From: a phage
Sequence record: PZ445526.1
DNA: 64,000 nucleotides
Reading direction: 5' to 3' (one strand)
Part shown: positions 1-3,696 of the stretch, one piece after another
How the letters are laid out: each line of letters begins with the position of its first letter
Numbering within the stretch: position 1 is the stretch's first letter
Translations under genes and position numbers: made by a program
The notes under the pieces: model-generated
What the model saw: the letters and a program-made list of their open reading frames with translations, nothing else
The model's database searches: none
What the model was told of the DNA's origin: nothing

Positions 1-83
1 TTATATTTCTGGGCAAAATAAGGAAGGCCTGATTGCCAGCTTAAACATACTCCATCAATATCAGTCAAAATAGTAGGCTTCAT
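1..83 (-). CDS. Partial CDS (N-terminal 27 codons; rest lies beyond window start); HAD-like hydrolase candidate
   Basis: ATG at 83..81 overlaps upstream stop (ATGA); translation MKPTILTDIDGVCLSWQ... has a DxDG-type HAD motif I; runs off the window. Confidence 0.4.
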   Translation of the reverse strand, partial: MKPTILTDIDGVCLSWQSGLPYFAQKY

Positions 84-538
84 AGAGAGTCTCTTAATAG
101 GTTTAACACATCAATAAATTCAGCTTCGGTTAGTATTGTATCATCTTTTGTTAGACCACTAGCCATGCTGTGCTTCAAAACTTTTCCTTTCGAGGCTTGT
201 AATGCATCACGAAAGCCCTTGTTTTGGATCGCTGCTTCAAAATATGCATTTGTGTATAATTCTTTCCACGCTGGGGAGTATCTTGAAAACGGAACTCCAA
301 GCCAGAAGAGGGTCCCACGGTCCTGAGCTCTAGCATAAGACCTTCCAGCTTGTTGGGCGGCAAGCCCTGATAACCCAAATATACGACGTTGTTGTTCAAC
401 ATTTTTCACCTTACACCCTTGGAGGAATCCTTCGAGACCTCCAAATTGAATACCATCCATAACGAAAGGCCAATGGGCGAAATTACTTAATGCACATGAT
501 GGCCATCTAAAATTGCTTCTAATCTCTAACTCAGACAT
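80..538 (-). CDS. NADAR/YbiA-like (DUF1768) domain protein, 152 aa from the ATG
   Basis: Track ORF starts on TTG at 544; in-frame ATG at 538. Motif LSNFAHWPFVMDG resembles E. coli YbiA FSNFAAWPIKVDG. Confidence 0.55.
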   Translation of the reverse strand: MSELEIRSNFRWPSCALSNFAHWPFVMDGIQFGGLEGFLQGCKVKNVEQQRRIFGLSGLAAQQAGRSYARAQDRGTLFWLGVPFSRYSPAWKELYTNAYFEAAIQNKGFRDALQASKGKVLKHSMASGLTKDDTILTEAEFIDVLNLLRDSL

Positions 539-737
539 TTTCAATGCTTATAATTTCAACATCAGCCCAATGACCATAGCAAGGAAGACGAAATTCAACT
601 GGCCAGTTAGGGTCCTTTTCTAATATAATAGACTCAACTTGTGGTTCTTCATGTTCATCAGTATATGGATTTTTATCTGTTACTTTATATGTGACCTTAA
701 TGTACTGAATTCCAAAAATCTTATTAATTATATTCAT
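531..737 (-). CDS. Hypothetical protein, 68 aa
   Basis: ATG-initiated ORF in a tightly packed minus-strand array; overlaps neighbours by a few nt. Confidence 0.5.
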   Translation of the reverse strand: MNIINKIFGIQYIKVTYKVTDKNPYTDEHEEPQVESIILEKDPNWPVEFRLPCYGHWADVEIISIENV

Positions 738-931
738 ACTAATTCCTTTAATCCGTAAATAGGAGATAATTCATCACCCATACGAAGGTCTTCATTTCCA
801 TCTACCCAGGAAACAATATAAGCCTCTTTTATTTGAATACCACTCCATTTAAATGGAGGTAGAACCTTAGAAATTAATCCAGGTATACCAACTCCCTTTA
901 ATTCAACGGTTTGACCTAAAAAGAATTTCAT
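734..931 (-). CDS. Hypothetical protein, 65 aa
   Basis: ATG-initiated ORF, 4-nt overlap with downstream gene. Confidence 0.5.
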   Translation of the reverse strand: MKFFLGQTVELKGVGIPGLISKVLPPFKWSGIQIKEAYIVSWVDGNEDLRMGDELSPIYGLKELV

Positions 932-1218
932 TAAAACCTCATCTGAAAACCGTGCGATTTAACGTTACCGCCGCCAATATCAGAAATGTTAATTTCGCGC
1001 GCAATTGAAGGGTCAATGTCAATTTCACGATTGAGTTTAGTGATAGCTAAAGTATCGCGCCCATTTACAGTACGGAACTCTAAAGGACAAACCACATCAA
1101 CGTAGTTTTTAATCGATTCACTGGTAGGCTGCAAATGAGCAGGAAGGTCTTTAGGCGCCTTTGAGAAAACCACTTCACAGAAATTTTTGCGGGTATCAAA
1201 ATAAGTAGTCATAAACAT
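931..1218 (-). CDS. Hypothetical protein, about 95 aa
   Basis: Track start 1251 has no SD and sits against a GC hairpin; ATG at 1218 is preceded by GAGGAAAAT. Confidence 0.5.
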   Translation of the reverse strand: MFMTTYFDTRKNFCEVVFSKAPKDLPAHLQPTSESIKNYVDVVCPLEFRTVNGRDTLAITKLNREIDIDPSIAREINISDIGGGNVKSHGFQMRF

Positions 1219-1235
1219 AATATTTTCCTCAGTAA

Positions 1236-1249
1236 GGGGCCGAAGCCCC
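1236..1249 (-). other. Intercistronic GC-rich stem-loop (GGGGC-UUCG-GCCCC on the transcript)
   Basis: Plus-strand ggggccgaagcccc is a perfect inverted repeat with a 4-nt loop, between a stop at 1258 and the SD/ATG at 1218. Confidence 0.5.
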
Positions 1250-1257
1250 ATTTTATT

Positions 1258-1623
1258 TTAAATATCAAATTCATTAAGAACTACATCAAAGATTGCTTCA
1301 AGATGCTCAGGTTTAGCTCTGTTACTCAGAATATGACGAATCCAAGTTTTAACCAAAAGCTTGCGATTAACGCCATTCCAGCAAGGATGAGTCCCTAAAT
1401 CGCGTTGACGGAAATCATCATCCAGAGCGATTTTGAAGTTGGAACCTTCCATTGTGATTGAAACCGTGATACCGTTTTCAAATCGCATATAAACGTAGTT
1501 AGGAGTCATATACTGTTCAATTTCGCATACTGATCCATTTTGATGTTTCCAAAGGCAAATAGTATCAATAGAACCTGCAATACCATTAGAAACATATTTA
1601 CGTTCAAAGTTGATGTAGTTCAT
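1258..1623 (-). CDS. Hypothetical protein, 121 aa
   Basis: ATG-initiated ORF with coding-like composition. Confidence 0.6.
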   Translation of the reverse strand: MNYINFERKYVSNGIAGSIDTICLWKHQNGSVCEIEQYMTPNYVYMRFENGITVSITMEGSNFKIALDDDFRQRDLGTHPCWNGVNRKLLVKTWIRHILSNRAKPEHLEAIFDVVLNEFDI

Positions 1624-1691
1624 TTTTATTCTCCGAGATGTTTAATTGCGGTACAGGTATATAATATCATATCCTGTACCAAAGTAAACAA

Positions 1692-2024
1692 TTATTTTAC
1701 TACTTTCCAATGCTGCATGTCAAGTTTACCAACTTTTTTCATCTTCTCAATTAAGCGTTCTGCACGTTGGCGAGCTGTAACATAATGCCATTCGCCTAAT
1801 TCATTTTGTTCAATTTTTCCAACGATTACTGTATTCAATTCATAAATCCAACCAGTAAAGAAATTATGAACTTGAATTGTAAAGGTGAAATCTGTTCCCA
1901 TACCTTCTGTTGTTTCTACTTCAATAATATCACCTTCAACTGCCATTAAGAACCACATAGTTTCATTATATTTACCATTGAAGCATTTAGTTTTAACTGC
2001 AGCGTTCAGATTAATCGTTTTCAT
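1692..2024 (-). CDS. Hypothetical protein, 110 aa
   Basis: ATG at 2024 preceded by AAAGGAGAA; early-promoter-like motif upstream. Confidence 0.6.
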   Translation of the reverse strand: MKTINLNAAVKTKCFNGKYNETMWFLMAVEGDIIEVETTEGMGTDFTFTIQVHNFFTGWIYELNTVIVGKIEQNELGEWHYVTARQRAERLIEKMKKVGKLDMQHWKVVK

Positions 2025-2045
2025 TTTATTCTCCTTTGTTTGTGT

Positions 2046-2083
2046 AAGATAATACTATCACAAAGGAACCATACTGTAAACAA
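2046..2083 (-). promoter_or_regulatory. Candidate sigma70-type early promoter (GTTTACA -35, TAGTATTAT -10 on minus strand)
   Basis: Plus-strand tgtaaac at 2075..2081 and gataatacta at 2048..2057, about 17 nt apart, upstream of the ATG at 2024. Confidence 0.4.
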
Positions 2084-2100
2084 CTTTATGCAATCTTTGG

Positions 2101-2130
2101 AAAATAAAAAAGGACTCCCGAAGGAGTCCT
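2101..2130 (-). terminator. Rho-independent terminator
   Basis: aggactcc-cgaa-ggagtcct hairpin followed on the minus strand by a U-run (plus aaaataaaaa), just after the stop at 2135. Confidence 0.7.
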
Positions 2131-2134
2131 CAAC

Positions 2135-2311
2135 TTATGCTTTCTGCTTACCAAAACGAGAAGCATCATCTCGAAGAACCGCACGTGCTCGACACATGAT
2201 CTTCTCAACAGTTTGATTGATACGAGAGTTCGACCCACGCTTGTAGCCAGCGCGTTTAGAATCACCAACTTTCTTTTCAACTGCTTTCTTTGCTTTAGCT
2301 TGTTTTGCCAT
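2135..2311 (-). CDS. Small basic protein, 58 aa (MAKQAKAKKAVEKK...)
   Basis: Track ORF extends to 2353 without SD; ATG at 2311 has an AAGAGA SD; terminator immediately downstream. Confidence 0.5.
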   Translation of the reverse strand: MAKQAKAKKAVEKKVGDSKRAGYKRGSNSRINQTVEKIMCRARAVLRDDASRFGKQKA

Positions 2312-2599
2312 TATAAATTCTCTTTTAAATGAAAATGCAGGACTTATTGACATTGCCTGCGCAAGCCCTCAAGGGGAACATAGGTTTTGAATATTTACCG
2401 ACAGGATAACCATAAACCTCGTCATCATACCACCAAGACTTACACAGATAACACTTTTCTGACGCATGATAGTAACATTCAAGAGGTACACCATAAAACT
2501 GCCGGGGTCTTAAAACTATAATGATTCGCAAATCATTAATCAGACAGTTCGATGGCTCCTCGATTTTAGCTCACACTAAGGCAGTGAATCTCCAATAAA

Positions 2600-2848
2600 T
2601 TACTTCAGTGTTACCACAAAGTGACGAACTGCTTTTCGTGCAGCAGAAGCCAAAGGCTTAGCATATTTAAGTTCATCTTTTTCCTGAAGCTCAGCAGCTA
2701 ATGCAGTTTGAGCAGGATTCAGATGTTTGAAATAACGCAGGATTTCAAGAGCTTCGGCTTCAACATCAATAGATGCGCCATAGTTTTCGTGACCACTATT
2801 CCATGCGTTTCGTTGCAGTTCAAGAGCGTGTTGTAATTGTTTAATCAT
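2600..2848 (-). CDS. rIII: rIII lysis-inhibition accessory protein, 82 aa
   Basis: 82-aa product MIKQLQHALELQRNAWNSGHENYG... recognised as T4 rIII; position between 31 and the 30.x ORFs matches T4. Confidence 0.85.
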   Translation of the reverse strand: MIKQLQHALELQRNAWNSGHENYGASIDVEAEALEILRYFKHLNPAQTALAAELQEKDELKYAKPLASAARKAVRHFVVTLK

Positions 2849-2987
2849 TTAAAAATTCTCGTTAGAGATTAAAACTCGGTAGTCACGTTCTTCTGAATTT
2901 CATCTTCTTTCGACAGATCTCTCAGTTGTAGACTACCACATAGAATTGTTCGGTTGACTTATTATTCCGACACCCAATTCATATTAT

Positions 2988-2995
2988 TATTTATA
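2988..2995 (-). promoter_or_regulatory. Candidate late promoter box TATAAATA
   Basis: Plus-strand tatttata is the reverse complement of TATAAATA, just downstream of the gene 31 stop; would read into rIII. Confidence 0.35.
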
Positions 2996-3331
2996 TCACT
3001 TATAAAGACACGGAATAGCTTTATAGTGACAAGTAACGAATTTTTGTTTAATTTCTTTTGGCTGCTTAAGACCCAGAGCTACAAAAGGATGCGGAACATT
3101 TCGAATTTGACCAACTGGAAGAGAAGTCAAATCACCAACTTCGCAGAAACCTTCAGGAACATCAGGACCAACAGAGTGAACTACACACAGTTCAGGAACT
3201 TCACCTTGAACACGTTTACCGATAATAAGTCCTGATTCTGTGACTTCTTCATCACCAGCTTGTGCAGGTTCAGAAACTAAAATAACATATTCACCGACAG
3301 CACGAATTGGTAGCTGTTGTACTTCAGACAT
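2996..3331 (-). CDS. 31: gp31 co-chaperonin (GroES-like), 111 aa
   Basis: 111-aa product [22 protein letters not shown]... recognised as T4 gp31. Confidence 0.9.
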
Positions 3332-3387
3332 CGTTTTTCCTTTTTGTTAACAGATGAATTAATAATAACAAATAATTCTTAAAGCAT

Positions 3388-3696
3388 TTATTTACCAATA
3401 AATTGGAGCAAATGCTCAACTTTCATACCATTAACGGAAATCAATTTGTCAATAGAAAAACCTCGCCATGCACCAAGCTCAACATCAAACACTGGAATCA
3501 TGTCAGTAGATTCTTTCCGAGTAGATTCAGTCAATTTACCAGTTTGCATGGTTGGCATAAAGTCTGCATCACGAGTACCTTTCATAGTACGAATAGTACC
3601 ATCAGACTTTTCAAAAACTACGTTTGAAACACCCATGGACAGTTTAGTTTTCAAAATTTCACGAATTGCTACTTTCTGCTCAGTTGTCAGTTTCAT
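3388..3696 (-). CDS. Hypothetical protein, 102 aa
   Basis: ATG-initiated ORF between 31 and cd. Confidence 0.6.
   Translation of the reverse strand: MKLTTEQKVAIREILKTKLSMGVSNVVFEKSDGTIRTMKGTRDADFMPTMQTGKLTESTRKESTDMIPVFDVELGAWRGFSIDKLISVNGMKVEHLLQFIGK

Follow-up and report, generated by a model that had tools for sequence, protein, structure and literature searches.

What does the short open reading frame at positions 80 to 538 of this phage DNA encode, and does its product act against a host defence? The window (the whole 64,000-nucleotide stretch analysed, record PZ445526.1) had been given an initial annotation in which this frame, placed in the 30.x region, was read as a NADAR/YbiA-like enzyme and a plausible counter-defence or nucleotide-metabolism factor, lying beside a HAD-like ORF that runs off the window. 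We followed up this reading by sequence comparison, structure modelling and the published work on phage T4.

Identity and surroundings of gene 30.3

The frame lies on the minus strand and has 152 codons, running from an ATG at 538..536 to a TGA stop at 82..80. The mechanical ORF list starts it at a TTG at 544, two codons further upstream; the ATG is the start annotated in T4 and related records. Its assignment to the 30.x region was exact, with gp31, rIII and 30.9 to 30.4 upstream of it, and the minus-strand gene order of 31, rIII, 30.9, 30.8, 30.7, 30.6, 30.5, 30.4, 30.3, 30.2 is identical to that of T4. Over its first 3.4 kb, the window has approximately 98% identity to many genomes of Tequatrovirus (T4-like) phages. 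The features at the level of genes and their junctions are as follows.

80..538, minus strand: coding sequence of gene 30.3 / adfN, from the ORF and its translation, Pfam PF08010 and identity to T4 gp30.3
531..538, minus strand: 8-nt overlap of the end of 30.4 with the start of 30.3, ATGTCTGA, read from the sequence; the same arrangement is annotated in T4
80..83, minus strand: overlap of the 30.3 stop with the 30.2 start, ATGA, read from the sequence
1..83, minus strand: first 27 codons of gene 30.2 (MKPTILTDIDGVCLSWQSGLPYFAQKY...), which runs off the window edge; identical to the N-terminus of T4 gp30.2
175..402, minus strand: ORF 30.3', 75 aa, inside gene 30.3; annotated in T4, Pfam DUF2883/PF11097

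The window protein is identical to T4 gp30.3 at 150 of 152 residues. Both differences, Q22H and I125M, fall at variable, non-conserved columns of an alignment of 58 full-length gp30.3 homologues (alignment A1), and at the nucleotide level the gene differs from that of T4 at 8 of 459 positions. The proteins of the Tequatrovirus phages Shinka and SHFML-26 are 100% identical to that of the window, and the Shinka copy is annotated 'NADAR domain containing protein'. Pfam PF08010 (Phage_30_3) matches residues 11-150 over its full length (model positions 1-138 of 138) with E=7.4e-70 and 233.6 bits against a cutoff of 36, and tblastn found a match to the window protein in 1511 phage records from many host genera, 1504 of which cover at least 80% of the protein. 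The Pfam match, the number of phage records and the identity to T4 together rule out a chance ORF. PHROGs returned only 'unknown function' for the window protein. By sequence, the ORF is an intact allele of the T4-type gene 30.3, alias adfN (anti-DarT factor NADAR).

Since gene 30.3 overlaps 30.4 and has no obvious Shine-Dalgarno sequence at its start, its translation is probably coupled to that of the gene before it, and the 30.4/30.3 and 30.3/30.2 overlaps suggest translational coupling within one transcript. A promoter and terminator scan of positions 1..3500 gave fewer promoter-like sites than shuffled sequence and nothing convincing beside 30.3. Further upstream, the 3' end of the 30.9 ORF (2135..2353) is overlapped by a strong terminator-like hairpin at 2110..2131 (minus strand), which extends slightly beyond it and has a 9-bp stem (GAGGACTCC/GGAGTCCTT) with a T-run after it. 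At 1694..1723 (minus strand), at the end of 30.8 and upstream of 30.7, there is a sigma-70-like promoter close to consensus (TTGACA-18-TAAAAT, 11/12). These two elements may bound a transcription unit that includes 30.7 to 30.2.

Two further observations concern the neighbourhood. The gene 30.6 ORF at 931..1251 (minus strand) has 106 codons if read from an upstream ATG, where T4 and Shinka annotate 95 (288 nt); the longer form is probably just an alternative upstream start. In T4 the minus strand continues beyond 30.2, in a part that lies outside the window, with 30.1, 30 (DNA ligase), alt.1 and alt, so that the genes of AdfN and of Alt, an ADP-ribosyltransferase of the phage itself, are some 3 kb apart. 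Iyer et al. noted that phage NADARs are co-expressed with ARTs (PMC9503650).

The embedded ORF 30.3' was considered as a second gene product and rejected, as it bears no sign of selection at the protein level. Within the overlap, the differences are synonymous in 30.3 and non-synonymous in 30.3' (4 of 4 against T4, 6 of 6 against Shinka), and Shinka has ACG in place of the 30.3' ATG while its gp30.3 is identical to that of the window. Compared with the phage CLB_P2, the window gp30.3 is 85% identical and 30.3' only 60%, and the 30.3' ORF was not detectable in more distant gp30.3 genes. By these comparisons 30.3' is probably not a real protein-coding gene.

NADAR fold and catalytic residues

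The initial annotation had named a search with the PF08719 (NADAR) profile as a check on its reading, and for the single window sequence this check came out negative, with no match at E<=10. A phmmer search of the PDB with the same sequence found no NADAR, its sole match, an ATP pyrophosphatase (E=0.61), being discarded as a chance match, and the NCBIfam search gave no NADAR match. Because the single sequence has no NADAR match, the question had to be put to a family alignment and a structure model.

Taken individually, 21 of the 58 members of A1 match PF08719 (best E=1.5e-7). The A1 profile found E. coli YbiA (2B3W) in the PDB at E=0.0049, and hhalign of A1 against YbiA gave 93% probability and E=3e-7 over 90 columns. 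Pairwise BLASTP aligned the window protein with YbiA at 33% identity over residues 17-70 (E=1e-5); within this segment lies the YbiA-like peptide that had been noticed from the sequence, LSNFAHWPFVMDG at residues 17-29, whose counterpart in E. coli YbiA is FSNFAAWPIKVDG. Among the A1 columns A16-L17-S18-N19-F20 and F25 are invariant, and D28 and G29 nearly so. The similar length that had been remarked on is also correct (152 aa vs 160 aa). The AlphaFold2 model of the window protein built on A1 (mean pLDDT 93.1, pTM 0.88) has the YbiA-like alpha+beta fold that a comparison with YbiA was expected to reveal, and a Foldseek search with this model returned the same top three matches. We regard the assignment of the window protein to the NADAR fold and superfamily as secure, the relationship being visible at the level of the family profile and the modelled fold only.

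The sites within the protein map to the window as follows.

452..490, minus strand: N-terminal NADAR signature LSNFAHWPFVMDG, codons 17-29, from A1; aligns to YbiA FSNFAAWPIKVDG
431..433, minus strand: Glu36, predicted catalytic glutamate, codon GAA; invariant in the 58 homologues, aligns to YbiA Glu48
410..412, minus strand: Lys43, predicted catalytic lysine, codon AAG; at least 90% conserved in A1, aligns to YbiA Lys55
170..172, minus strand: His123, codon CAC, at the end of the last beta-strand; invariant in A1 (58/58)
83..127, minus strand: C-terminal alpha-helix, codons 138-152; helix at 138-151 in the model, residues identical to T4

The catalytic Glu that had been looked for on alignment is thus in place, as Glu36 opposite YbiA Glu48. 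The last beta-strand of the model comprises residues 120-123 and is closed by His123. The hhalign alignment ends at K122, opposite YbiA V124, so that His123 comes to stand opposite YbiA Glu125 by one ungapped column. The last-strand residue is reported to differ by NADAR subfamily, being Glu in the YbiA type, Asp in the DarT1-linked type and His in phage gp30.3 (PMC11543638, PMC11125620, PMC12945103), and the placement of His123 agrees with this rule for the phage proteins. In calling the product a NADAR/YbiA-like enzyme, the initial annotation was right as to the NADAR fold; within NADAR the protein lies outside the YbiA subfamily, the residue at this position being His and not Glu. The C-terminal helix, which is lost in the inactive RB69 allele, is intact in the window allele. 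As judged from alignment and model, every residue known to matter for function is kept in the window allele: E36, K43, H123 and the C-terminal helix.

Disrupted forms of adfN occur in some natural T4-like sequences (P0007, P0014, P0015, P0016, P0017, P0049, P0093). Some are in-frame deletion fusions in which the N-terminus of gp30.7, gp30.8 or gp30.4 is joined to the C-terminal half of gp30.3, two have frameshifts near codons 77-80 that shift the reading between 30.3 and 30.3', and a further group consists of calls with a truncated N-terminus. Glu36/Lys43 are missing from most of these sequences; in P0015 both are retained, and His123 and the C-terminal helix are lost. Such forms are rare, given that 1504 of the 1511 phage records have coverage of 80% or more of the protein. 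This pattern is consistent with an accessory counter-defence gene that lies in a region prone to deletions.

Action of AdfN and its neighbour gp30.2

The function of T4 gp30.3 has been published. Johannesman et al. [quoted passage not shown] Deleting adfN in T4 or T2 cost about 4 logs of plaquing on DarTG1 cells, and the E36A and K43A substitutions each abolished the function of T4 AdfN (PMC11257639). RB69, whose non-functional adfN has lost its last 15 residues through a frameshift, was rescued on DarTG1 by AdfN supplied in trans (PMC11257639). Purified AdfN took ADP-ribose off DarT1-modified DNA and did not bind DarT1 (PMC11257639), and two independent biochemical papers found that T4 gp30.3 hydrolyses guanine-ADPr and not thymidine-ADPr in vitro (PMC11125620, PMC12945103). 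In transposon sequencing, 30.3/adfN was conditionally essential only with DarTG1 present (bioRxiv 10.1101/2025.11.20.689424). In uninfected E. coli, T4 AdfN failed to neutralise DarT1, and it was of hardly any help to phages with unmodified DNA; a preference for hydroxymethylcytosine DNA is the authors' own suggestion (PMC11257639, PMC11125620). Since T4 AdfN works only in T-even infection, the assay that had been proposed for the window gene, rescue from DarT toxicity by expression, would have been negative, the idea behind it being right nonetheless. The suggestion that this phage gene counters defence by reversing DarT-type guanine ADP-ribosylation was thus already in print for T4 gp30.3, from which the window protein differs at 2 of 152 residues.

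Because all key residues are kept and Q22H and I125M lie at variable columns, we infer that the window protein has the same function as the T4 protein. We put at roughly 0.93 the probability that the window ORF encodes an intact T4-type AdfN, a single-domain NADAR N-glycosidase, with the anti-DarTG1 function of this allele carried over from T4. On infection, host DarTG1 would release DarT1, which would ADP-ribosylate guanine N2 of the phage DNA and block its replication. AdfN, a minimal single-domain NADAR-fold enzyme expressed during infection, would hydrolyse the guanine-ADP-ribose bond by means of Glu36 and Lys43, with His123 standing in for the third acidic residue of other NADARs, and the restored DNA would make phage replication possible. 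AdfN would then act as an orphan type-IV-like antitoxin whose target is the modified DNA, the toxin being left unbound.

The neighbouring ORF that had been described as HAD-like and running off the window is gene 30.2, and this description is borne out by a DxDG motif and by the HAD fold of a homologue 97% identical to T4 gp30.2. The 30.2 product begins MKPTILTDIDGV, which contains the HAD motif I (DxDG). In an alignment of 43 gp30.2 homologues (alignment A2), D8 and D10 (motif I), K132 (the motif III Lys), and D150 and D151 (the motif IV DD) are invariant. The window gene being partial, the fold was tested on that full-length homologue (P0105), whose model, built on the 43 sequences, has a pLDDT of 83 overall and above 90 over residues 1-190 and adopts a Rossmannoid HAD fold with a cap. 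With this model, a fold search of the PDB gave 92 matches at E<=0.001, of which the best 50 are HAD-superfamily hydrolases or enzymes engineered on that scaffold, 5'(3')-deoxyribonucleotidases among them. The sequence searches with gp30.2 gave little: there was no match to Pfam or NCBIfam even at E<=10, the single-sequence PDB search returned noise only, and the profile search gave a marginal match to a 5'(3')-deoxyribonucleotidase (E=0.021). For the HAD assignment, therefore, only the fold search is conclusive. We are confident that residues 1-200 of gp30.2 have a HAD-phosphatase fold, and by the model the nearest relatives among the listed matches would be 5'(3')-deoxyribonucleotidases and other HAD hydrolases. 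T4-type gp30.2 (T4 locus L001:5475-6311) also has a C-terminal tail of about 80 residues, modelled with low confidence and rich in Pro, Asn and aromatic residues, which is missing from many homologues (about 200-220 aa).

Genes 30.3 and 30.2 are adjacent in Tequatrovirus and Dhakavirus and close to each other in Acj61, Matisse and SJ_PmiM, the adjacency being absent in Phi1 and KVP40; they occur in similar numbers of phage records (1440 for gp30.2 vs 1511 for gp30.3). In the published DarTG1 screen adfN was the sole gene reported lost and 30.2 went unmentioned, and nothing in that screen indicates that 30.2 is needed against DarTG1 (bioRxiv 10.1101/2025.11.20.689424). It is a speculative and improbable idea that AdfN and the coupled gp30.2 form a two-enzyme module, with gp30.2 acting on released ADP-ribose, its phosphorylated product or a damaged deoxynucleotide, or that the His swap and the stripped core give AdfN substrates beyond DarT1 lesions on hydroxymethylcytosine DNA.

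A main substrate other than DNA is very unlikely. Iyer et al. (2022) argued from genomic context that the main targets of phage NADARs are soluble ADPr derivatives (PMC9503650), which for AdfN could be immune signals or by-products of RNA repair, and guanine-ADPr on RNA is likewise a substrate of all NADAR families in vitro (PMC12945103); the anti-DarTG1 activity would then be one facet of the enzyme. The spread of gp30.3 homologues over approximately 1500 phage records and many host genera is perhaps wider than pressure from DarTG1 explains. However, the phage can do without adfN on K-12 and cannot do without it on DarTG1+ hosts (PMC11257639, bioRxiv 10.1101/2025.11.20.689424), and the purified enzyme cleans DarT1-modified DNA (PMC11257639), both of which favour AdfN as a DNA-repairing counter-defence enzyme.

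The nucleotide-metabolism role that had been offered alongside counter-defence can be given next to no weight. It would make gp30.3 a YbiA-type housekeeping N-glycosidase that clears reactive intermediates of the riboflavin pathway; gp30.3 does have its fold and N-terminal motif in common with E. coli YbiA, a HAD phosphatase-like gene adjoins it, and cd and DNA ligase, both of nucleotide metabolism, lie in the region. Against this, gp30.3 carries His at the last-strand position where Glu defines YbiA, published trees place it nearest the DarG1-type NADARs and not YbiA (PMC11257639), and the knockout phenotype is specific to defence (PMC11257639, bioRxiv 10.1101/2025.11.20.689424). Nor do we believe that the window copy is an inactive allele like that of RB69: disrupted natural copies exist (the RB69 frameshift and the deletion-fusion and frameshift variants in databases), but here the frame is full-length, no invariant residue is missing, the C-terminal helix is in place, and the protein, with its two changes at variable columns, recurs with identical sequence in other phages.

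The NADAR anti-DarTG1 role of gene 30.3 is already known from T4, and the window adds no new biology to it. The main value of the analysis lies in correct annotation, as the labels 'hypothetical' or 'unknown function' are still found in many GenBank records and in the PHROG family for what is a characterised anti-defence enzyme that decides whether T4-like phages grow on DarTG1-carrying E. coli. For phage therapy and the prediction of host range, resistance to DarTG1 can be predicted from an intact adfN in which E36, K43, H123 and the C-terminal helix are all present.

Comparison with known systems

The closest known system is T4 gp30.3 itself, which has the same length, the same site between 30.4 and 30.2, and the same E36, K43, H123 and C-terminal helix, so that only Q22H and I125M set the window protein apart from it. 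E. coli YbiA (PDB 2B3W), encoded on the chromosome in an operon under LexA control, is a housekeeping N-glycosidase that acts on riboflavin intermediates; it has about 20% identity with the window protein, and its Glu125 corresponds to His123. Since His replaces this defining Glu in 58 of 58 gp30.3 homologues, the YbiA subfamily is excluded.

The DarG1 antitoxins (BC4488-type) are encoded beside DarT1, whereas the window gene is an orphan with no adjacent darT. We found no darT beside 30.3 in the window, where the neighbours are 30.4 and 30.2, nor beside 30.3 in T4, Shinka, CLB_P2, Acj61, Matisse, Phi1 or KVP40. DarG1 has a catalytic Asp in the last strand, where the window protein has His123, and DarG1 proteins such as the Geobacter/Trichlorobacter lovleyi NADAR (PDB 8BAT) carry an N-terminal beta-sheet/helix extension, a proposed ssDNA binder, that the window protein lacks: it has 152 aa against 219 aa in 8BAT, 133 of them aligned, and the first core strand of its model begins at residue 3. 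With no adjacent darT, no last-strand Asp and no N-terminal extension, a DarG1-type assignment is likewise excluded. T4 AdfN is also no substitute for DarG1 in uninfected cells (PMC11257639).

Other phage enzymes undo DarT-type ADP-ribosylation of DNA as AdfN does, namely NADAR-Bas32, NADAR-Bas60 and AdfM (T4 tk.4). The Bas32 and Bas60 enzymes belong to other NADAR branches and are also active on unmodified DNA, and AdfM is a macrodomain directed against the thymidine-ADPr made by DarT2. By its sequence and modelled structure, the window protein belongs to the phage gp30.3/AdfN clade of NADAR and consists of the core fold alone; it would work as DarG1 does, but as an orphan.
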